Under the pieces are notes generated by a model. That model was not told where the DNA came from, did no database searches, and was given only the letters and a program-made list of their open reading frames with translations. 45,644 nucleotides of DNA from Cyanobacteria bacterium P01_D01_bin.156. Its GTDB lineage: Bacteria; Cyanobacteriota; Cyanobacteriia; Phormidesmidales; Phormidesmidaceae. The stretch lies in NCBI GenBank assembly GCA_039024555.1, contig JBCCQQ010000051.1:1-45644 (forward strand), in the 5' to 3' direction. The first letter of the stretch is position 1. Each line of letters opens with the position of its first letter. Below are positions 32,846-45,507 of this stretch, in pieces. Both the position numbers and the translations under genes were made by a program.

Positions 32846-33484
32846 CTAAAGCAGAGTAAATACAAGTGCTAAAGCAATACCTGCCATAAATGCCAGGATG
32901 AGTGTGTCACGAACAAGCGTACTACGAGAACCTCTGCGTACTCTGCCTTGGGTAGCTGCAGGATACGGCATAGCGGCTATGCCTGAATTGGGACCTCCCA
33001 TCGCGTAACCGTTGGTGACCTGTGGGGGAAATGCAGTAGCTGGCATCGCCATTGCAGGCGCCGAGACCGCAGCATGTTGGAGGATAACAGCCTGGGGTGC
33101 CATCTTAAGAGGCTCTACATTAGGAAACATAGAATCCTGAATGACCAGACTAACTTCATGATTGCTCCAGCCGTTTTCGCGTAGCACATCTGCAGCGGCA
33201 TCCGGGCCACGGTTCAAGAAGTCCAACTCTGATTGATTTGGTTCGGTATGGCCCGCATTCATGGAATCAGCAGGCGCACCAAAAACTTTTTGCAGCTCGT
33301 CTAATTCTTTAGACTGTTCCTGCATGGTTTCAAACTGCTCTTGGCTAATGGAAACATGCTTCAATACGACATTGATTTGCTCGCATGACCAGCCATCCCG
33401 GCACAAAGTGCGAGCCGCTCTAAAGTCGAGCTCCTGCTCCAATAATGTACTCTGCTGAAACGTACTCTGCTGAAGGTCTTTCAT
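32846..33484 (-). CDS. Hypothetical tail-anchored protein, paralog A
   Basis: Two A-x3-L-x3-GW-x4-[IV] units; C-terminal TM helix; similar to 33698-34270. Confidence 0.75.
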   Translation of the reverse strand: MKDLQQSTFQQSTLLEQELDFRAARTLCRDGWSCEQINVVLKHVSISQEQFETMQEQSKELDELQKVFGAPADSMNAGHTEPNQSELDFLNRGPDAAADVLRENGWSNHEVSLVIQDSMFPNVEPLKMAPQAVILQHAAVSAPAMAMPATAFPPQVTNGYAMGGPNSGIAAMPYPAATQGRVRRGSRSTLVRDTLILAFMAGIALALVFTLL

Positions 33485-33697: not shown

Positions 33698-34270
33698 TCA
33701 CAGCATATGAAGGATTAGCAAAAAGCCGATAAAAGCGAACACTCCTACCCAGAACATGCTCAGCAGGGCCTTAAATGCCGCTGCCTTAGAATACCGTTGG
33801 GATCCCTTGGCTAGATGATAAGGATAGCGGTAGAACGAATAATGGCTCAGATCATAACCGTCTTCATCATGAGTTAACGCAAACCCTATATTTTCTAAGG
33901 GCGTAGCATTACGTTTAAGGACCTTGCGAATTTGACTGTTTGTCCAGCCGTAGTGAGTTAATACGGCAGTAGCTTCTTCCACCCCACGATTTCTGACGCG
34001 GATGCGAGGTAATTTACTCGTATCTATATTTCTATGACTGATCTCGGCGGTAGATGTACTAGATGGTGTACTCGGAGGACTAAACTTTTGTTGGAGTTGT
34101 TCAAAAGTTGTTGCTTGTTGCTGAATAATACGAAAGTTGCCTGGGCGAATAAAGCCACATTCTAAAACACCGTTGATTTCTTCGAGCATCCAGCCAGCCC
34201 TGCATAGGGAGTGGGCAGCTCGAAGATTCAGCTCTTCTCTAGATAAGCTGTGGTGATAAAACTCGTCCAT
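33698..34270 (-). CDS. Hypothetical tail-anchored protein, paralog B
   Basis: ELNLRAAHSLCRAGW and NRGVEEATAVLTHYGW; C-terminal TM helix. Confidence 0.75.
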   Translation of the reverse strand: MDEFYHHSLSREELNLRAAHSLCRAGWMLEEINGVLECGFIRPGNFRIIQQQATTFEQLQQKFSPPSTPSSTSTAEISHRNIDTSKLPRIRVRNRGVEEATAVLTHYGWTNSQIRKVLKRNATPLENIGFALTHDEDGYDLSHYSFYRYPYHLAKGSQRYSKAAAFKALLSMFWVGVFAFIGFLLILHML

Positions 34271-35031: not shown

Positions 35032-36345
35032 ATGACAGATGTTAGGTCTCCGGAGCAGTCTGGCAAGATGTTACGGGTGACAGTTGACCCGGTGGTCAAA
35101 TCGAATCGAGCCTTGCGCGTGTTGGCAATGTGGTTGATGGGGGTTACGGCCTTATCTGCTGCGATCGCGATATATCTGCGCTATCGGGGTTCCCAGGATG
35201 ATGCTGTAGTCGTGCCCTTTCATACGGTAGAACGCGCAGGGGTTGAGCTTACAGTCACCGCCAGTGGAACGTTGGCTTTGGGGGGGCAGCAAACCTTGAA
35301 GTCTCCACAGAGTGAGGCGACGGTTGAGCAGGTGTTAGTGCGGGTACGCACTCCTGTAGAGGCGGGGCAGCCTCTGGTGGTATTACGCGATCGCGACAAA
35401 GAGCGGGACCTGAGATCGCAGCAAGTAACTCTTCAAAAAAACCAGCTTGACCTAGCCCGCCGTCAGGAAAAAGTCATCGAAGTGCAACAGCGAGTTGCGG
35501 CCGCTGTCGAGCAGTACCAAGAGTCTCAGGAACTTTGGGCACAAGGGTTTATTCCCGAAGATGACGTACGTAACGATTTAGCAGAATTAGACCGCATTCG
35601 TTCTGAGTTAAAAGATGCTCAGTTAGAAGTCACGAAGACTGAACTGGATCTTAGAACTAGTCAGGAGACCCTCGCAGCCCTGGAGCAGCAGCTCAACGAT
35701 CGGGTCGTGGTTTCGCCGATTGATGGTGTGGTGCTAGACGTAGACGTGGCGGGTGGTGAAGCCATTGCTACAGAGACAGCCCTACTCACCCTAGGGGACC
35801 CCCGTCAGGAAATTGTCAATCTCACACTCACAACACTGGATGCCGCTAAAGTCAGCATTAACCAACCAGCCAGAATTCGTGCCATCGGTCCCGATGCCCA
35901 AGAGTACATGGGACGAGTGGTGGCGCTGGCCCCGCAAGCACTAGCCACCGGAGATAGTGGTCGGGGAGCTTCTCCAGAGGGGCAGGCTCGTGTCAATGCC
36001 AATATTCAGTTGGATCAGCCGAGCCAGACATTAATCCCTGGCAGCTTTGTCAATGTGGAGATTATTACGGAACAACGACAAAATGTCACTGTAATTCCTC
36101 CGGAAGCTGTTCAACGAGATCAGGGAGCTACCTTTGTTTGGGTTCGTAATCAGCGAGGAAAAGCTGAGCAGCAGCCCATTGAGCTGGGGTTACAGGGCCT
36201 AGATATTTTTGAAGTGACGAGTGGGTTAGAGCTTGGTGATCAAATTGCTTTAGTTCCTCCTACCTTGGCCATTACGCCTGGTATGGTCCTGAATGATCCT
36301 GCAGAGCTAGCTCCCTCAACGTCATCTTTTGAAGCACAGCCATAG
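35032..36345 (+). CDS. MacA/HlyD-type periplasmic adaptor (membrane fusion protein)
   Basis: N-terminal TM; lipoyl half-motifs (VEAGQPLV, VSPIDGVV); coiled-coil hairpin; IPPEAV, LGLQG, SGLELGD. Confidence 0.9.
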   Translation: MTDVRSPEQSGKMLRVTVDPVVKSNRALRVLAMWLMGVTALSAAIAIYLRYRGSQDDAVVVPFHTVERAGVELTVTASGTLALGGQQTLKSPQSEATVEQVLVRVRTPVEAGQPLVVLRDRDKERDLRSQQVTLQKNQLDLARRQEKVIEVQQRVAAAVEQYQESQELWAQGFIPEDDVRNDLAELDRIRSELKDAQLEVTKTELDLRTSQETLAALEQQLNDRVVVSPIDGVVLDVDVAGGEAIATETALLTLGDPRQEIVNLTLTTLDAAKVSINQPARIRAIGPDAQEYMGRVVALAPQALATGDSGRGASPEGQARVNANIQLDQPSQTLIPGSFVNVEIITEQRQNVTVIPPEAVQRDQGATFVWVRNQRGKAEQQPIELGLQGLDIFEVTSGLELGDQIALVPPTLAITPGMVLNDPAELAPSTSSFEAQP

Positions 36346-36350
36346 ACATT

Positions 36351-37535
36351 ATGGGACTACCTTTTAACGATCTTCTGTTTATGACCTGGCGGTCCATTAC
36401 CAATCAGTGGTTACGCTCTGGTCTCACTACATTTGGGGTGTTTATGGGGGTAGGTGCCGTCAGTGCTACCCTAAATATTCAAACGATTACTCGAGAACAG
36501 ATTGATCTCAAGTTGGCTGAACGAGACCAGCCCTTTGTGAGCCCTTGGGTACGGATGAGGAACGGTCCTACACCCCCTCTAGACGAAACCATACAACGAT
36601 CTCTCAAAGAGTCAATTACAGAAATTCGCTCCATTAGTTCTATTGGCAATGTGTATAGCATTGACACTGCATTGTACGAAGCCCAAGAAGCCGAAATACG
36701 AGCACGCAGTGTTTCCCTCAATTATTTAGATACTACAGGACGACGGATGCTGAAAGGACGGTTTTTTAATCCAGCGGATGTGGACCAATATCGGCCTGTT
36801 GCCATCATTGATGAACAGTTGGCCGTCAGTCTGTTCGAAGAACAATCACCCTTAAATAAAGCTGTTTATGCCAATGGTAATCGGTTTGTTGTGATTGGTG
36901 TGACAGAGTCTAAATCAAATTCTGAATGGAGTGATGGGGGAGAGCTCTGGATGACCCAAACGTTTGCCCAGGTTCTGGCTGGTGAATATCAGTGGGATTC
37001 TATCCAAATCAGTGCTTATTCCCTGATGCAAGTGAATGATTTAAGCGAAGCTGTAGAAGAGTTTTTATTACAAAATTTTCCCCAGTCAGAAGTTTATGTG
37101 TGGAGTAATGCGGACGACTTGTTAGAAGATCTTGAAGTTCAACAGATTGCATCTGCTGCCCTCACTGCCGTTGGTTTAATTGCGCTGATTATTGGTGGCG
37201 TGGGCATTGCCAATATTACGGTTGCAGCTGTGTTAGAGCGTACTAAAGAGATTGGCATTCGCCGTGCTATCGGTGCTTCAAAGCTAGAAGTGATGAGTCA
37301 GTTCATTCTAGAAGCTGTGGTTTTGAGTCTGCTAGGGGGCGTGATTGCTGTTGGTACGGTTCATGGGCTAACTCGGTTAGCCACGACTGTGGTGGTGGAA
37401 GCACCCTACACATTTTCTCTTCGTAATGCTGCTCTTTCCATGGGCTCTGCCATCGCCGTAGGTGTGGGCTCCAGTGTTATTCCCGCTTTGCGGGCTACCC
37501 AGATTGACATTGTTAAAGCCCTGCGGAGTGACTGA
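36351..37535 (+). CDS. MacB/FtsX-family ABC transporter permease
   Basis: LRSGLTTFGVFMGV, GRFF, IGGVGIANI, ERTKEIGIRRAIGA, QFILEA, PALRA...ALR. Confidence 0.92.
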   Translation: MGLPFNDLLFMTWRSITNQWLRSGLTTFGVFMGVGAVSATLNIQTITREQIDLKLAERDQPFVSPWVRMRNGPTPPLDETIQRSLKESITEIRSISSIGNVYSIDTALYEAQEAEIRARSVSLNYLDTTGRRMLKGRFFNPADVDQYRPVAIIDEQLAVSLFEEQSPLNKAVYANGNRFVVIGVTESKSNSEWSDGGELWMTQTFAQVLAGEYQWDSIQISAYSLMQVNDLSEAVEEFLLQNFPQSEVYVWSNADDLLEDLEVQQIASAALTAVGLIALIIGGVGIANITVAAVLERTKEIGIRRAIGASKLEVMSQFILEAVVLSLLGGVIAVGTVHGLTRLATTVVVEAPYTFSLRNAALSMGSAIAVGVGSSVIPALRATQIDIVKALRSD

Positions 37536-37596
37536 TGCCCAAGCTGAGCGTTGATAGTGCTGTCTTTACTTTCACAGAATTAGGGGAGATCTTTGG

Positions 37597-39084
37597 ATGA
37601 GCCGTTGTTTGGTACTCATAGGCCTAGGGCATGGATTGATGCTGGCTATATCGCAGCCGTTATTTGCCCAATCTGGTCTGCCTGAGTTGCCCCCTGTGAA
37701 TCTGAGTGTGCCAGACGACAATGAGCCATCGACTACGTTGACTGAGCCCCTGGTGCTGACGGATGAGGATGTGGTGACGCTGCTGCTGCAGAACAATTTA
37801 GAACTAAGAAATGCGACTTTATCTAGAATTTCTCAGCGTCAGGAACTCAAAGAAGCGGAGAGTATTTTTACACCTGATTTTACTCCCACATTGAGTGTAG
37901 GCGTTGAAGATACTAGCAGCAGCTCATCAGAAGTGACGCGAGAGATTCAGCTGGGGGCAGAGCTCTTGACTCCTCTCGGTACTACTTTGGAGGTAACCCT
38001 TGATGCCCTGGATGACCAAGACTTGAATCTGACGGTCACACAACCCTTGTTGCGAGGAGCTGGTAGAGCGGTTAATAGGTCTCCTGTTGAGATTGCTCGT
38101 TTACAAGAAACCAATAATCAGTTCGAGTTACAACAGCAGGTGATCAACAACATTACCCAAGGGGTACAAACCTACCATGCGTTAATCCGGGCTGAGGCGA
38201 ATCTGCGTATTCAGCGATTATCGTTGGAAACTCAGCAACAGCAGCGACGTTCAACAGAAGCCTTGGTGAAAGCAGGGCGGTCCGCACGGTTTGAATTGGT
38301 AGAAATTGACGCTAACTTAGCGGCGACTGAGGCAAATGTCTTGGCAGCAGACAATGATCTAGAGCAGGCAAAGTCTGATCTGTTAGATCTACTGGATTTG
38401 TCAGAGCTGTTAGATATTACCGTAGCTAGTCAAACGCTGGATAACTTACGAGAGATTGCTCAAGATGCTGATGACCTCTTATTAGAGGAGTTGCTGGCAG
38501 TTGCCTATGAAAACCGTCCTGATTATCAACAGGCTCAGCTTAATCTGGAAATTGCGAAAGTTAATGGGGTTGTGGCGTCAGATAATCGCCGATGGACGTT
38601 GGATGTGCGGGCTAATGCCAGCACTGGTGACTTTTCCCGTGCCTCGACTGAACTTGTACTAACGCGCGTTTTGGATGATGAGTCTCTGGAAACGGTCTTT
38701 CAACAAAATCAGGTTGATCAACAGCAGTTGGAAAATGACTTAGAGCGTTTGCGGTCTGATATTCGGTTGGATGTTGCAGATCAGTTACGCAATGTAGACT
38801 CTGCTCGTAATCGCATTGAGGTGACTCGCTTAGCTCGTGAATTAGCGGAGCAGCAATTGGAGAATGCCCGAGCCCGAGCTCGTCGAGGGCGCACGCGTAA
38901 TATTTTTGAGGTTCTGGAGTTTCAAAATGATGTGGTAGAAGCTCAGAATAATGAGGTAGGTGCGGCCATTGATTTAGCGGATGCGATCGCATCCCTCAAC
39001 CAATCTTTAGGCACCACCCTCACCGTTTGGTCTGCCCAGGTAGAAGCGAGTCAGCTGTTAGCCATTCCATCCCCGGATCTGTAG
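37597..39084 (+). CDS. TolC family outer-membrane efflux protein
   Basis: LLQNNLEL, TQPLLRGAG, AYENRPD, two OEP-like repeats. Confidence 0.88.
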   Translation: MSRCLVLIGLGHGLMLAISQPLFAQSGLPELPPVNLSVPDDNEPSTTLTEPLVLTDEDVVTLLLQNNLELRNATLSRISQRQELKEAESIFTPDFTPTLSVGVEDTSSSSSEVTREIQLGAELLTPLGTTLEVTLDALDDQDLNLTVTQPLLRGAGRAVNRSPVEIARLQETNNQFELQQQVINNITQGVQTYHALIRAEANLRIQRLSLETQQQQRRSTEALVKAGRSARFELVEIDANLAATEANVLAADNDLEQAKSDLLDLLDLSELLDITVASQTLDNLREIAQDADDLLLEELLAVAYENRPDYQQAQLNLEIAKVNGVVASDNRRWTLDVRANASTGDFSRASTELVLTRVLDDESLETVFQQNQVDQQQLENDLERLRSDIRLDVADQLRNVDSARNRIEVTRLARELAEQQLENARARARRGRTRNIFEVLEFQNDVVEAQNNEVGAAIDLADAIASLNQSLGTTLTVWSAQVEASQLLAIPSPDL

Positions 39085-39114: not shown

Positions 39115-40557
39115 TTATTTTGCTATGTAGCGCCAATGCCAGGGTTCTTTCTCTCCGGCTGGATTGCCCCGCGGGTAAGATAGCTCAAAGCCATAGTTCT
39201 TGGCATAGCGTTTTAACCAACGGTAGCCATCAGTACGCTCAAAGCTAACATCCCAGTCAGTACTCTCGTCCGCATTCTTGTCACCAATGGCAACGGCATA
39301 ACCGCTGTGATAATCACTTTGTTGCAGCCACTGTCTAATATTGATACCAGTATTTGTTCTCTGTTGTAGCTGTCGTCGCTGTTCTGCTAAAGAGAGATAT
39401 CCATTTAAGGGCAATAGCTCTACACCTTCAGCCTCCGCTGCTGCCACCATGGCCCAAAATGCATTCACTGTTTCAGGCTTGGCCTGAATGCTGCCATCAT
39501 CTAAGAGATCGACTAAAGTGTCTGGTTTGGCTGCTTCGTACTGTTGGGGGCTGGGTTTAACCGTATCCCAGCGTCTGCTTAGGGTATAGGCCGTCCACTG
39601 GTATCCCCTTACCCCAAAGCCCAACATCATCAACACGAGGGTAATCAATCCAATTACCTTCAGAAGTAGCTTGGGTGGAATCAGTTTGGCTGGTGCTGTA
39701 GACGCTGTTGGAACTGGTTGTGAATCTTCGATTAGGCCTTTGGCGGCAACATGGGTGGGGAGTTTGCTATCTTGCCCAACCTTGATGCCCGTTATCGTGC
39801 GTTCTAATTCTTTGACGGCATCTGCTGCTGTTGGAAATCGCTTTTTAGGATTGGGGTCGATCAGGTGTTTAATAAATCTCTCTAGGGCTGGGTTAATGGT
39901 TTTGTCTGACCATCGCACCTGTTGAGTCAAGGGATTAATAGGGAGTTGTTTGGGATGGAGATCAGTGAGGGCTGCGATCGCAACCATACCCACTGCATAG
40001 AGGTCGCTGGCATAATAATGCTTTCCCCGTAATTGTTCGGGAGCCATGTAGCCAGTTTGGGTGGCTAGGGGCTGCTCCTGTTGACTATGGCTGATATCTT
40101 TTACCGCACCAAAGTTGATCACAACAATATTGCCATTACGTTGACGGATAAGGTTAGTCGGTTGAATATTCCGATGAATGACTCGCTGTCTATGAACAAA
40201 TGCCAGAATATTTAAAGTATCTGTTAGTAACTTGAGCACATAGCCCTCATCCAGACATTTTTTTTCCCGAATTTCCTGAGATAGGTCGTGACCCTCTATC
40301 AGCTCTTGAGCAATATAAAATTTGTCGTCATCCTCAAAAGAAGCGATGAGTTTAGGAATGTGGGAATGTTTCCCTAAAATATCCATTACTCTGGCCTCTT
40401 GGCGAAATTTATCTAAAACCTGAGGGCCGTAGCAGTTGAGCTCCATAAGCAGGCAGGGAGTTGGCTGAGGAGCATGCTGATCGATAGCACGATACGTAAT
40501 CCCATAATTTCCCTGATCTAGGATGTTGAGAATTTCAAAACGGTTTGCCAGTTCCAT
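39115..40557 (-). CDS. Ser/Thr (pseudo)kinase - TM - VanY/M15 D,D-carboxypeptidase-like (pseudo)peptidase fusion
   Basis: Kinase fold (HRNIQPTN, NFG, GYMAPEQ, SDLYAVG); TM helix; M15B-like C-terminus (WLKRYAKNYGF, EPWHWRY). Confidence 0.85.
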   Translation of the reverse strand: MELANRFEILNILDQGNYGITYRAIDQHAPQPTPCLLMELNCYGPQVLDKFRQEARVMDILGKHSHIPKLIASFEDDDKFYIAQELIEGHDLSQEIREKKCLDEGYVLKLLTDTLNILAFVHRQRVIHRNIQPTNLIRQRNGNIVVINFGAVKDISHSQQEQPLATQTGYMAPEQLRGKHYYASDLYAVGMVAIAALTDLHPKQLPINPLTQQVRWSDKTINPALERFIKHLIDPNPKKRFPTAADAVKELERTITGIKVGQDSKLPTHVAAKGLIEDSQPVPTASTAPAKLIPPKLLLKVIGLITLVLMMLGFGVRGYQWTAYTLSRRWDTVKPSPQQYEAAKPDTLVDLLDDGSIQAKPETVNAFWAMVAAAEAEGVELLPLNGYLSLAEQRRQLQQRTNTGINIRQWLQQSDYHSGYAVAIGDKNADESTDWDVSFERTDGYRWLKRYAKNYGFELSYPRGNPAGEKEPWHWRYIAK

Positions 40558-40758
40558 GGGGTTAGGTATCTATGGGCAAGGGCTCAAGGCTCGTCAGTCA
40601 AAGGCCGCTCATTTTCTGATTCCATTGTCTTGTGAAGATTTGCCCAGCCCTCGAACCTACAGCATTCTTTAATGGGATGTTTGTCAGACAGGCTGTTAGC
40701 TCATGTTTCTGATGTGACGGGGGTTAAGCTAAAGATTGGTGTTTATGATCCATGGTCC

Positions 40759-41694
40759 ATGGTAAGTCGCTGTCAGCTGCTATTTTCCTTAACCTGTGCT
40801 GCCGTGGTGGGTAACGGCATAATGAGCCAGGCTGTACAGGCACGTCCGACCATTGTGTGCAGCTATGATCCGAGTACTGGAGCGCCTAATCCTCTCGGGA
40901 TGCGGGCATTTATCACCATGACGGAGACTAACGGTACAACAGAAGTCACCTATGAGCGATTAGGTGCATTTGTGCCTGGTCCTGCAGAAGCGATCCTCAC
41001 TACGGAACGCTCCTTAGTTTTTCCAGGTAAGGCCATTGATCAAACGCGTCAATTGCTCTTGGACAATGTTTCCTACTATCGAGAACTCGTAGGATTTAAC
41101 GATCCTGACGGCTTTGCACCCGTCAATAGTACATTGATCTGTCGAGCTGGGGCACCACCCTCTGTGCCCCGCCCATCAACGGAGCTACCAGACTTACAGC
41201 CCGCCCGCGAAGAGTTACCCGATTTGGGTACTCCTAGTACATCGAATAGACCAACCAATACGGCCGATTCTGCTCCTGCAACATTTTATGGAACCATTGC
41301 TGGCTTAGCTGATGGCAATTATCGGTATGTCTCTGGGCCTGCTGCTGAGCGGGCATATTCTGAACAAGCATTGCTCAGACGTGGTGGTGTGCTCTTTAAT
41401 TTTCGAAAAACTGGAGATCAAGTGATGGGTTTCTACAGTTACATTGATGGTGACTCCATCTGCGTCGAAGGTCGAGTCACTGGCAATACCATCACGGGTC
41501 AGGCATACCCTAGGAATGGCGTTACTCAAACTTTAGGAGAGGACTTTGCCTTCTGGGGACCAGCATCCTTTTTACGAGTTCGCCGTAGCCAGGGAGAAGG
41601 CGGCCAGCGTTATTACAGCAGCGCTATTCTAGAACTCAGTGACTTTTCCAGAATTAATGCTGGCTCATCGTTGCCCCCTAGTAGCTGTCAGTAA
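40759..41694 (+). CDS. Secreted two-domain hypothetical protein with a Pro/Thr linker (ORF track start 40672)
   Basis: Signal peptide ending AVQA; Cys pair in each domain; PST-rich linker; LADGNYRY motif. Confidence 0.7.
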   Translation: MVSRCQLLFSLTCAAVVGNGIMSQAVQARPTIVCSYDPSTGAPNPLGMRAFITMTETNGTTEVTYERLGAFVPGPAEAILTTERSLVFPGKAIDQTRQLLLDNVSYYRELVGFNDPDGFAPVNSTLICRAGAPPSVPRPSTELPDLQPAREELPDLGTPSTSNRPTNTADSAPATFYGTIAGLADGNYRYVSGPAAERAYSEQALLRRGGVLFNFRKTGDQVMGFYSYIDGDSICVEGRVTGNTITGQAYPRNGVTQTLGEDFAFWGPASFLRVRRSQGEGGQRYYSSAILELSDFSRINAGSSLPPSSCQ

Positions 41695-44208: not shown

Positions 44209-44425
44209 AAAACTGTTGTTAGAAGATATTAGATGCCAAAGTTAGGATGCTAATTTCTTCAGTAGAGACATCATAAACACTTTGACCATAATCAAAGCTC
44301 ACTATAACAATGTAATGGAGAGAAAGAGTTATCTTAACTGATAAAAATGTTCTTATAGCCTTGTCAAAGACTCCTTTCTCTCTCACAATCACAATTATTC
44401 AGTGTTCTATCGAATAATTCCATTG

Positions 44426-45507
44426 ATGGCAAAGTCAACTGCACGTACAAAATCTAATACTGATCGGCTTCAATCTTTTTCCCTGTGGGGTATTGTGGCT
44501 GGCAGTATTGTGCTCAGTTTTGCTAGTCTGTGGTTTCTTTTGATGGTACTGCCCCACAGGCAGGTTCCTAATACTGTCACTGAAGCTCAAAAGCGTCGTG
44601 CGGATCTCATAAATAGCAATCGAGAAAATGTATTTAAGGGAGTACAAGCATTAGCAGGTCTGGGCTTTGTCCTAACAGCCTATCTGGCATGGCGTAATTC
44701 TCAACTAGTGGAGGATAAAAATGTTGCCGAGCGCTTTACTAAAGCGGTGGAAATGCTTGCTGATGATAGTAAGCTTGCCGTTAGGCTAGTGGAGCGTCAA
44801 AGCTAAAAATTAGGATTGACCCAGTTATTCAGTGAGTCGTGAATCGCATTCTTGATAAGGTCTAGCGGTAGTAAAGGCGATTCTCATCGATCCCAAATCT
44901 CAGTCTTGACGCTCCACTAGGAGGGATTTATGCCTTAGAACGTATTGCTAGGGACTCTACAAAAGATCATCCCGTGGTTATGGAAGTCTTAACAGCCTTT
45001 ATTCGTGAAAAGACTAAGATTGGATTCTCTGATCAGCCTGTACACCCGCGTGATGATGTGCAAAGTGCACTGATAGTTATTCTGCGCCGAGTATATAAAT
45101 ATGATCAACAAGAACTTGATCTGAATAGTTGTTATCTCCAAGGTGCCAATCTGGAAAAAGCTCAACTAGAGCATGTCGATTTATCTCTAGCAAATCTGAA
45201 AGATGCGATTCTAGTGGAAGCAAACCTGAAGGATGCGAATTTAGGTACATCTCAACTAGAGCATGTCCTTCTCAGCAACGCCTGTTTAGAGAAAGCGCGA
45301 TTATATAGAGCTGATCTAAAGCGTGCAGATCTGAGTGAGGCTAATTTGGATCAAGCAAATTTGACTGGTGCCGATTTAAGGGATGCGAATTTAATTGGTG
45401 CGTCTCTTAATTCTGTAAATTTGACTGAAGCACATCTAGAGAGAGCAAATTTGACTGGTGCGAACTTAGAAAATGCAGATTTGATGGGCGCGAATCTAAA
45501 AAATTAG
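44426..45507 (+). pseudogene. Membrane-anchored pentapeptide-repeat protein gene interrupted by a MITE
   Basis: Removing 131 bp (44790-44920) joins ...ERFTKAVEML...AVRL to GGIYALERIARDS...VMEVLTAFIRE and A(N/D)L pentapeptide repeats, giving a 316-aa ORF. Confidence 0.9.
44786..44920. mobile_element. MITE (non-autonomous miniature IS), 131 bp net insertion
   Basis: Perfect 15-bp inverted ends CTAGTGGAGCGTCAA / TTGACGCTCCACTAG, extending imperfectly to ~34 bp; CTAG (or TA) target duplicated; no coding capacity. Confidence 0.92.

Follow-up and report, generated by a model that had tools for sequence, protein, structure and literature searches.

A likely receptor-type Hanks kinase family of cyanobacteria with a long-dead peptidase as outer module

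The gene described here lies in a stretch of 45,644 nt (contig JBCCQQ010000051.1 of Cyanobacteria bacterium P01_D01_bin.156; the whole stretch is called the window, and all coordinates are positions in it), where it occupies positions 39115 to 40557 on the minus strand. It encodes a protein of 480 aa, in which a Hanks-type kinase fold is followed by a linker, a predicted membrane helix and a domain of the M15B (LdcB/VanY) peptidase fold. The protein likely belongs to a receptor-type Hanks kinase family whose outer module is a long-dead peptidase, and this copy is likely a secondary pseudokinase. Both of its domains are very probably non-catalytic and yet held under selection.

Architecture and active-site residues

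The features of the gene were located as follows (coordinates, strand, description and basis).

39115..40557 (-): whole gene, 480 aa; pseudokinase, linker, predicted membrane helix and pseudo-M15B domain (list of open reading frames (ORFs), Pfam)
39814..40536 (-): Hanks-type kinase-fold domain, residues 8-248, predicted cytoplasmic (Pfam PF00069, Pkinase, E 1.7e-31)
40444..40446 (-): Met38 in place of the beta-3 Lys (Lys in 92% of 83 outgroup kinases)
40240..40242 (-): Tyr106, family-specific, present in live and dead copies (conservation count)
40162..40170 (-): catalytic loop N130-I-Q132 in place of D-x-K (motif position, alignment)
40036..40116 (-): NFG (Asp to Asn) through APE, a shortened activation segment (length comparison with relatives)
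39610..39666 (-): predicted transmembrane helix, residues 298-316 (single hydrophobic 19-mer, mean hydropathy 2.38)
39118..39546 (-): LdcB/VanY-fold (M15B) outer domain, residues 338-480, predicted periplasmic (Pfam PF02557, model)
39454..39456 (-): Trp368, invariant and specific to the fusions (conservation count)
39394..39396 (-): Leu388 in place of the carboxylate-binding Arg (LdcB Arg120) (alignment to LdcB)
39289..39318 (-): S414-D-Y416-H-S-G-Y-A-V-A423, with zinc His to Tyr, zinc Asp to Ala and Ser retained (alignment to LdcB)
39136..39147 (-): E471-P-W-H474, with catalytic Glu, Trp and third zinc His retained (alignment to LdcB)

The reading frame runs uninterrupted over all 480 aa, and the initial annotation, which had reported an intact frame, the order of kinase, helix and M15 domain and a series of substitutions at catalytic positions, was borne out on each of these points. 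The kinase motifs start at residues 14 (DQGNYG), 35 (CLLMEL), 128 (HRNIQPTN), 148 (NFG), 172 (APE) and 184 (SDLY), and those of the outer domain at 385 (NGYLS), 414 (SDYHSGYAVAIGD) and 471 (EPWH); the Pfam VanY match covers residues 358-479 (E 3.7e-20). The whole stretch was matched with 0 differences by one Logan contig, whose run may be the source of the stretch. An assembly artefact was ruled out, as identical substitutions recur in relatives from other assemblies, and a pseudogene was ruled out by purifying selection (see below) and by the frame itself, which contains 0 stop codons where about 20-33 would be expected after 0.3-0.5 neutral changes per site.

In the kinase domain, Met38, Asn130, Gln132 and Asn148 stand in place of Lys, Asp, Lys and Asp, respectively. 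The bilobal kinase fold is kept: the model matched S. aureus PknB 4eqm (Z 25.1, rmsd 2.6, 244 aligned) and the PknA/PknB fold, and the fold residues E174 (APE), D185 (the alpha-F Asp of SDLY) and R240 (the subdomain XI Arg) are retained. A pseudokinase has been defined by the loss of one or more triad residues with retention of the fold (bioRxiv 2025.01.12.632604), and here all three residues of the active-kinase triad (beta-3 Lys, HRD Asp and DFG Asp) are lost. The first Gly of the Gly-loop is also gone in many relatives that keep the triad (LDQGGYG), and its absence is therefore not a sign of decay in this copy. The activation segment from DFG to APE comprises 27 residues here, compared with 34 in 71 of 79 relatives, the difference being an in-frame shortening by 7.

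For the outer domain, motif correspondence was taken from an alignment to B. subtilis LdcB (4ox3; SGYRS/NGYLS, SEHQTGLAMD/SDYHSGYAVA and EPWH/EPWH), and the residue numbers of S. pneumoniae LdcB were transferred by motif spacing (PMC4087270). By this correspondence, Leu388, Gln393, Ser414, Tyr416, Ala423, Glu471, Trp473 and His474 are equivalent to Arg120, Gln125, Ser151, His153 (zinc ligand), Asp160 (zinc ligand), Glu204, Trp206 and His207, respectively. Gln125, Ser151, Glu204 and Trp206 of LdcB contact the terminal D-Ala and the stem (PMC4087270), and all four equivalents (Q393, S414, E471 and W473) are retained here. The outer domain has the LAS fold, and its model (pLDDT 91.6) matched LdcB 4jid (Z 14.9, rmsd 2.9, 141 aligned), followed by VanXY and VanY and then by Hedgehog 2ibg (Z 8.3, rmsd 3.3, 109 aligned). 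The zinc-ligand pattern (H-x6-D plus a distal H) is broken, reading Y416, A423 and H474, and the carboxylate-binding Arg is replaced (L388); the catalytic Glu (E471) and the specificity Ser and Gln (S414 and Q393) are present. Both domains of this copy thus lack catalytic residues (M38/N130/N148 and Y416/A423), as the initial annotation had noted, and from these residues both activities are judged to be lost. A homodimer prediction for two copies of residues 338-480 gave a score of 0.00, which is evidence in neither direction.

The kinase is placed inside and the peptidase fold outside on account of the kinase itself and of a stand-alone M15B paralogue, which carries the same membrane anchor before its domain; this topology is therefore a predicted one.

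Conservation, origin and selection in the fusion family

Relatives were compared in a working set of 79 distinct full-length fusions from one cyanobacterial family, from which duplicates had been removed; L025, P0033, P0034 and P0035 were dropped as partial or internally gapped, and four rows were added from further fetches. A hydrophobic helix of at least 1.6 hydropathy lies between the two domains in 77 of the 79. The first zinc His is kept in 0/79 (78 Tyr and 1 Ala, with Asp preceding in 78), and all three zinc ligands occur together in 0/79. Degeneracy of the peptidase site is therefore conserved in orthologues, which the initial annotation had proposed to check, and the loss of peptidase activity would be family-wide and would date from the root of the fusion family. 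As controls, the SEH..G...D site was present in 127/145 newly listed representatives (the remaining 18 being mostly fusions, fragments or Clostridia-type rows, described below), and the intact site was present in 20/20 stand-alone paralogues of the host's genus, including that of this genome. Hardly any variation is seen across the fusions at E471, W473, H474 and the new pair D415-Y416, and Q393 and S414 are found in 94% and 96%, respectively, of the 50 rows that are not of the Phormidesmis type. Conservation is also high at W368 (79/79), L348 (79/79), D354 (76/79) and S356 (74/79). W368, D354 and S356 are variable in stand-alone peptidases, in which the commonest residue at position 368 is Leu (19% of 67 rows), and Trp368 together with the DDGSI stretch is conserved in the fusions only.

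Of the 120 matches listed by the protein search, 40 carried both domains; these are named as Leptothoe, Leptolyngbya, Phormidesmis and other cyanobacteria. The fusion was present in 19 of the 22 genomes of the host's genus; it is missing from three, with completeness of 70%, 89% and 98%, the last of which has no stand-alone gene either. In a second genus it was obtained from at least 21 of the 38 genomes sampled, and it also occurs in five further genera of the same family. Outside the family, it was not found among the 150 matches listed for 401 genomes of the class (408 further matches), nor among the matches listed for 401 genomes of the phylum (3 candidates scored per genome, 81 further); these class- and phylum-wide results mean 'not found' and not absence. 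A kinase fusion outside the cyanobacterial type was not found in a metagenome motif scan or in the ESM Atlas, the scan pattern being one that would miss other motifs. Database names for the relatives reflect one domain or the other, the ESM Atlas groups these proteins as an automatically named cluster of 64 members, and no NCBIfam model reaches its cut-off for this protein. In a tree of 96 outer domains, which was a quick, weakly resolved build on 142 columns, the 26 fused domains formed one clade (SH-aLRT 96) inside the cyanobacterial SEH peptidases. The 40 fused kinase domains that were placed in a tree alongside 35 outgroup kinases likewise formed one clade (98), whose deep branches are triad-complete and which pulled in one stray, a long-branch degenerate kinase from the same genome. 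From these trees a single origin of the fusion is inferred.

The Lys/Asp/Asp triad is kept in 29/79 fusions, deep branches included, and lost in 50/79; all six checked residues are kept in 24/79, and a complete triad was found in 10 of the 19 fusion-bearing genomes of the host's genus. Triad-complete orthologues include P0008 and P0022, the proteins of Leptothoe kymatousa and L. spongobia. On the 79-row tree the triad state changed 8 times, with 6 of the changes forced by well-supported branches, and, given a complete ancestor, these changes are most simply read as repeated losses. One old loss accounts for 33 rows, in which a full-length dead kinase has been kept over long branches; this copy groups with P0002 and P0004 in a small clade adjoining complete kinases. 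Kinase death would most simply be a derived state, reached repeatedly in some lineages, and not the design of the family. The proposal of the initial annotation that the protein signals through a pseudokinase fits this copy, whose kinase has no triad, but does not extend to the family, in which 29/79 are triad-complete.

In the 50 degenerate rows, Lys38, Asp130, Lys132 and Asp148 are retained in 10%, 14%, 4% and 24%, respectively, and of the 96 sites that complete copies conserve, those for ATP binding and catalysis drop to 4-34%. The dead kinases show many different replacements and no single alternative active site. E8, H90, L102, Y106, I144, S158, P209 and L232 are present in 86-100% of dead rows and in 0-37% of 83 outgroup kinases, and all eight are present in this copy; Tyr106 is found in 24/24 intact and 50/50 degenerate rows (77/79 overall) and in 0% of the outgroup. 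The selective loss of catalytic sites, together with the retention of family-specific residues, suggests a non-catalytic job common to live and dead members.

Within the genus, outer-domain dN/dS (GY codon model; rough values, synonymous sites being near saturation) was 0.085 for 9 sequences with a complete kinase and 0.093 for 9 with a dead kinase, this copy included. The intact stand-alone paralogue gave 0.099 (20 sequences), and the agreement argues that selection on the outer domain is not relaxed. The value was 0.157 for 25 Phormidesmis-type sequences and 0.07-0.45 in 13 close pairs, which are mutually non-independent. Dead kinase domains gave 0.153 and 0.145, compared with 0.097 for complete ones, although the tree of the dead set holds some branches older than the loss; 11 close pairs of dead kinases gave 0.08-0.23. 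Dead kinases are thus under purifying selection that is relaxed only in part. Between this copy and all 18 genus relatives, synonymous sites are saturated (pS 0.62-0.91). The initial annotation had proposed a dN/dS below 1 as the check on its substitutions, and both domains proved constrained (outer domain 0.085-0.093, dead kinase 0.145-0.153). It had also named what would speak against it, namely close orthologues keeping Lys/HRD/DFG and HxxxxxxD with this copy evolving neutrally. Lys/HRD/DFG are indeed kept (10/19 in the genus, 29/79 overall), HxxxxxxD is kept in none (0/79), and neutral evolution was not seen in the sequence sets compared.

Possible function and related systems

The trees suggest a single joining event between an active Pkn2-type kinase of cyanobacteria and one copy of their ordinary M15B carboxypeptidase. 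The zinc His of the M15B copy would have gone at the base of the family, and the kinase would have stayed complete in many lineages and lost Lys/Asp/Asp repeatedly elsewhere, this lineage included, with the kinase fold and the family-specific residue set remaining under selection after loss of the triad. The product would be an envelope receptor, in which an outer domain derived from a stem-peptide hydrolase still holds its substrate without cutting it and an inner domain docks partners, phosphotransfer being optional. That the outer domain binds peptidoglycan stem peptides uncut and that the inner domain relays by docking partners, not by phosphorylating, is the reading we adopt, with slightly less than even confidence. 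Peptidoglycan is proposed as the ligand because of the ancestry and location of the domain and the retention of Gln393, Ser414, Glu471 and Trp473 in the clade of this copy.

Several observations weigh against this receptor reading. The Lys/Arg content flanking the helix (2.2 vs 2.6) is such that charge bias leaves the orientation unfixed. The carboxylate-binding Arg is retained in just 17/79 fusions, and the SAPPG loop of the stand-alone peptidases is swapped for a W410-L411 segment, which the model shows as a helix that could block the groove. In the 29 Phormidesmis-type rows, residues 393-413 are for the most part missing and Q393 and S414 are gone, so that the D-Ala pocket is not a universal reason for conservation, although these rows still carry D415, Y416, W368 and EPWH. 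No cell-wall or signalling gene was found as a conserved neighbour among the fusion loci compared, and no operon was found. On terminal branches, the ratio of kinase to outer-domain change was 1.72 where the triad is lost and 0.89 where it is not (nine catalytic and Gly-loop sites excluded; 17 and 19 rows, with kin non-independent), and this copy, a long branch with a shortened activation segment, would fit partial decay too.

The outer domain might instead be a repurposed protein-binding module, with the cleft plugged, a new Trp368/DDGSI surface binding an envelope protein and the inner domain serving as a scaffold. We consider this unlikely, although it would account for the fusion-specific conservation of W368, D354 and S356 and the conservation of L348, and the W368 region is conserved even in the clade without the lid, Q393 and S414. 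The fold is shared by Hedgehog, whose zinc-free Drosophila form (Hh) binds Ihog (PMC4102407); however, no conserved neighbour suggests a partner, and Q393, S414 and E471 are retained in the clade of this copy. Less probable still is that only the anchor and the outer domain matter, as a wall tether or spacer, and that the kinase is a folded, fading passenger, with this copy part-way to loss. Repeated triad loss, the faster evolution of the kinase in dead copies, the altered state of 12/96 intact-conserved sites in this copy and its shorter activation segment are what such fading would produce, but a dN/dS of 0.08-0.23 in dead kinases, the persistence of the full-length dead kinase over long branches in the 33-row clade, the family-specific residues retained in dead copies and the missing stop codons are difficult to reconcile with it.

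Atypical catalysis in one or both domains, either slow phosphotransfer without the triad or metal-free or other-metal chemistry through Tyr416, Glu471 and His474, appears very unlikely. The near invariance of E471, W473, H474 and D415-Y416 would agree with it, and SpkE of Synechocystis, a kinase without key motif residues, provides a precedent. SpkE was first reported as inactive and later as active (PMC11863333), a history that advises caution in calling kinases dead from sequence. Here, however, Lys, the catalytic Asp, the catalytic-loop Lys and the DFG Asp are all gone together, the replacements in dead kinases are diverse, and two of the three zinc ligands are gone, in a fold whose enzyme LdcB shows no activity in EDTA (PMC4087270).

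The initial annotation had also offered the protein as a decoy of an active paralogue. If it acted as a decoy or a regulator, its target could be the stand-alone M15B peptidase or an active kinase paralogue: this genome has one intact M15B paralogue (SEHHTGYAVD), which occurs in 20/22 genomes of the genus, and about 27 further kinase-like frames, of which the closest is 40% identical. There is no genomic linkage, however, the paralogue lying on contig C40 and the fusion on C51, and stand-alone M15B genes occur in 395/401 genomes of the class, whereas the fusion was seen in one family only. This idea is accordingly regarded as highly improbable.

As a candidate peptidoglycan receptor, the fusion resembles the PASTA Hanks kinases (PknB, PrkC, StkP and Stk1), in which a kinase is likewise followed by a single membrane helix and then by an outer module that is non-catalytic and related to enzymes of the cell wall, the orientation of the fusion being inferred. 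PASTA domains bind peptidoglycan fragments (PMC5786024, PMC6428115). The fusion differs in having no PASTA Pfam match (NF033483 at 94 bits vs a cut-off of 450), a dead M15B hydrolase as outer module, a cyanobacterial host and loss of kinase catalysis in 50/79, and by analogy it may work like a PASTA kinase without being one. With LdcB/DacB, VanY and VanXY (MEROPS M15B, LAS; 4ox3, 4jid, 4mur and 5zhf), it shares the fold (Z 12-15) and the site Ser, Gln, Glu, Trp and last His, and it is distinguished by zinc His to Tyr, zinc Asp to Ala, Arg to Leu, the replaced SAPPG loop and the kinase fused in front; in LdcB all three zinc ligands are universally conserved, and no activity is seen with EDTA (PMC4087270). 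The N-terminal domain of Hedgehog, in particular the zinc-free Drosophila Hh, in which two zinc ligands are changed to Thr and Tyr (PMC4102407), also presents a LAS fold in signalling with one zinc ligand turned to Tyr. However, Hedgehog is a secreted ligand that lost other ligand positions (D148 and H183 of Shh), whereas a receptor is predicted here, and at 18% identity in the structural alignment it serves as an analogy and not as close kin.

Membrane pseudokinases (the MviN pseudokinase, EssB/YukC, ActPs1-3, GLW, CP1, DYD and DLHK) likewise have a triad-less fold, a link to the membrane and a scaffold role, and MviN links a pseudokinase to peptidoglycan synthesis (PMC12599244). The ActPs, GLW and DLHK families are dead almost throughout (bioRxiv 2025.01.12.632604), whereas the fusion family mixes live and dead members. 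CP1, a mixed cyanobacterial family, has no membrane helix and is linked to COG3899 (PMC12599244), whereas the fusion has a helix and no COG3899 domain in its 480 aa. No publication on a kinase-VanY fusion or a Tyr-type dead M15B domain was found in a search that left most subscription literature outside. VanY is unmentioned in the main texts, as far as available, of PMC12599244, PMC2176072 and bioRxiv 2025.01.12.632604 (whose supplementary domain tables may list the architecture), it appears in other contexts only in PMC12419801, and the available main texts of two surveys of cyanobacterial Ser/Thr kinases (PMC2176072, PMC11863333) gave no match for VanY or peptidoglycan and name no domain of this kind for sensing the cell wall. 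The fusion is thus apparently a variant of membrane Hanks kinases not described before.

For the sensing of the thick peptidoglycan of cyanobacteria, the fusion family offers a concrete candidate receptor. The family also forms a natural series for pseudokinase evolution, with orthologues of 60-70% identity, usually at one locus, having live or dead active sites within one genus, which makes direct comparison possible.

Tyr-type M15 domains elsewhere and neighbouring genes

A search of representatives gave proteins that have no kinase and carry M15 domains, singly or in tandem, with the motif SDYQTGLAVT; some of these proteins are named Clostridia or Aristaeellaceae by their source. In 37 kinase-free proteins, 49 of 50 domains had an aromatic residue at the zinc His (Tyr 43, Trp 5 and Phe 1). 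The Clostridia-type members are P0123, P0158, P0170, P0274-P0307, L179, L191, L210, L213, L219, L224, L227 and L237; in their domains the zinc Asp is mostly Thr and the Arg is retained, and their N-termini resemble signal peptides. These domains formed their own clade (97) among canonical SEHQ-type domains, separate from the cyanobacterial fused clade, and the aromatic-for-His change therefore arose at least twice. Judged by their residues, the Clostridia-type proteins annotated as metallopeptidases are probably non-catalytic, and the convergent aromatic residue flags entries named 'D-alanyl-D-alanine carboxypeptidase' or 'M15 family metallopeptidase' as probable non-enzymes.

The metagenome-contig motif scan gave 65 matches, of which 31 were in frame and 27 had an M15 domain, comprising 13 kinase fusions, 4 short cyanobacterial-type frames (possibly truncated) and 10 kinase-free Clostridia-like proteins. 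The frames L205:821-2749 (+) and L220:2416-4044 (-) encode proteins with a membrane anchor, in which the N-terminal tail is long and charged, a further outer domain is present and the M15 domain at the C-terminus reads SDYQTG and is also without the Arg (SGYVS and AGYTS). Outside the two main groups, Tyr at the zinc His was also found in P0346, apart from the Clostridia clade, in P0217, a stand-alone cyanobacterial-type protein adjoining the fused clade, and in P0161, a long-branch row inside that clade. A broader proposal, which we put forward as doubtful, is that the change from SEH to SDY makes a recurrent zinc-free module for reading peptidoglycan, arisen independently in cyanobacteria and Clostridia, and that in filamentous cyanobacteria it would form a receptor ectodomain, a diderm counterpart of the PASTA kinases, signalling as a scaffold with phosphotransfer discarded at least 6 times.

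The neighbours of the fusion follow ordinary synteny. In the host's genus they are a 340-aa gene of unassigned family and an acyltransferase. The former is the ORF at 40672-41694 (+), which has no Pfam or NCBIfam match, is divergent from the fusion and adjoins it in several genus genomes. Phormidesmis-type neighbours, named from reading their sequences, are a small membrane protein, a thiC-like gene and an aminopeptidase-like gene. The small predicted membrane protein (130-165 aa; L107:905-1399 (-) and relatives) is the next gene downstream of the fusion, shares its strand in the four loci that were looked at, and was counted in 28 Phormidesmis-type loci, duplicates included; it is a possible partner of the fusion in that clade. 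On the other side of the gene in the window, genes for a membrane-fusion protein, a MacB-type permease and an outer-membrane efflux protein stand in a row at 35032-39084 (+), with no ATPase ORF among them; they are convergent with the fusion, end 30 bases from its stop and were not seen as conserved neighbours. A promoter and terminator scan gave 5 and 1 sites, compared with 2.5 and 2.0 expected, and so yielded no usable element; no RNA data set was listed as carrying the gene.

Further along the window, two adjacent paralogous ORFs at 32846-33484 (-) and 33698-34270 (-) share 31% identity over 121 residues (E 8e-18) and have a helical motif that looks internally repeated, with a hydrophobic tail at the C-terminus; neither gave a Pfam family above cut-off or an NCBIfam match. 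The ORFs at 44402-44806 and 44974-45507 (+) look like the two parts of a single pentapeptide-repeat protein with a membrane anchor, whose frame is interrupted by a stop or a frameshift. Elsewhere in the genome, altered kinase-like frames were found at G000:C14:141-1982 (IHCNIKPEN with LIGFG), C6:76778-82276 (IHKNINPGN) and C40:3040-4380 (no recognisable motifs), which suggests that pseudokinases are not rare in this genome.

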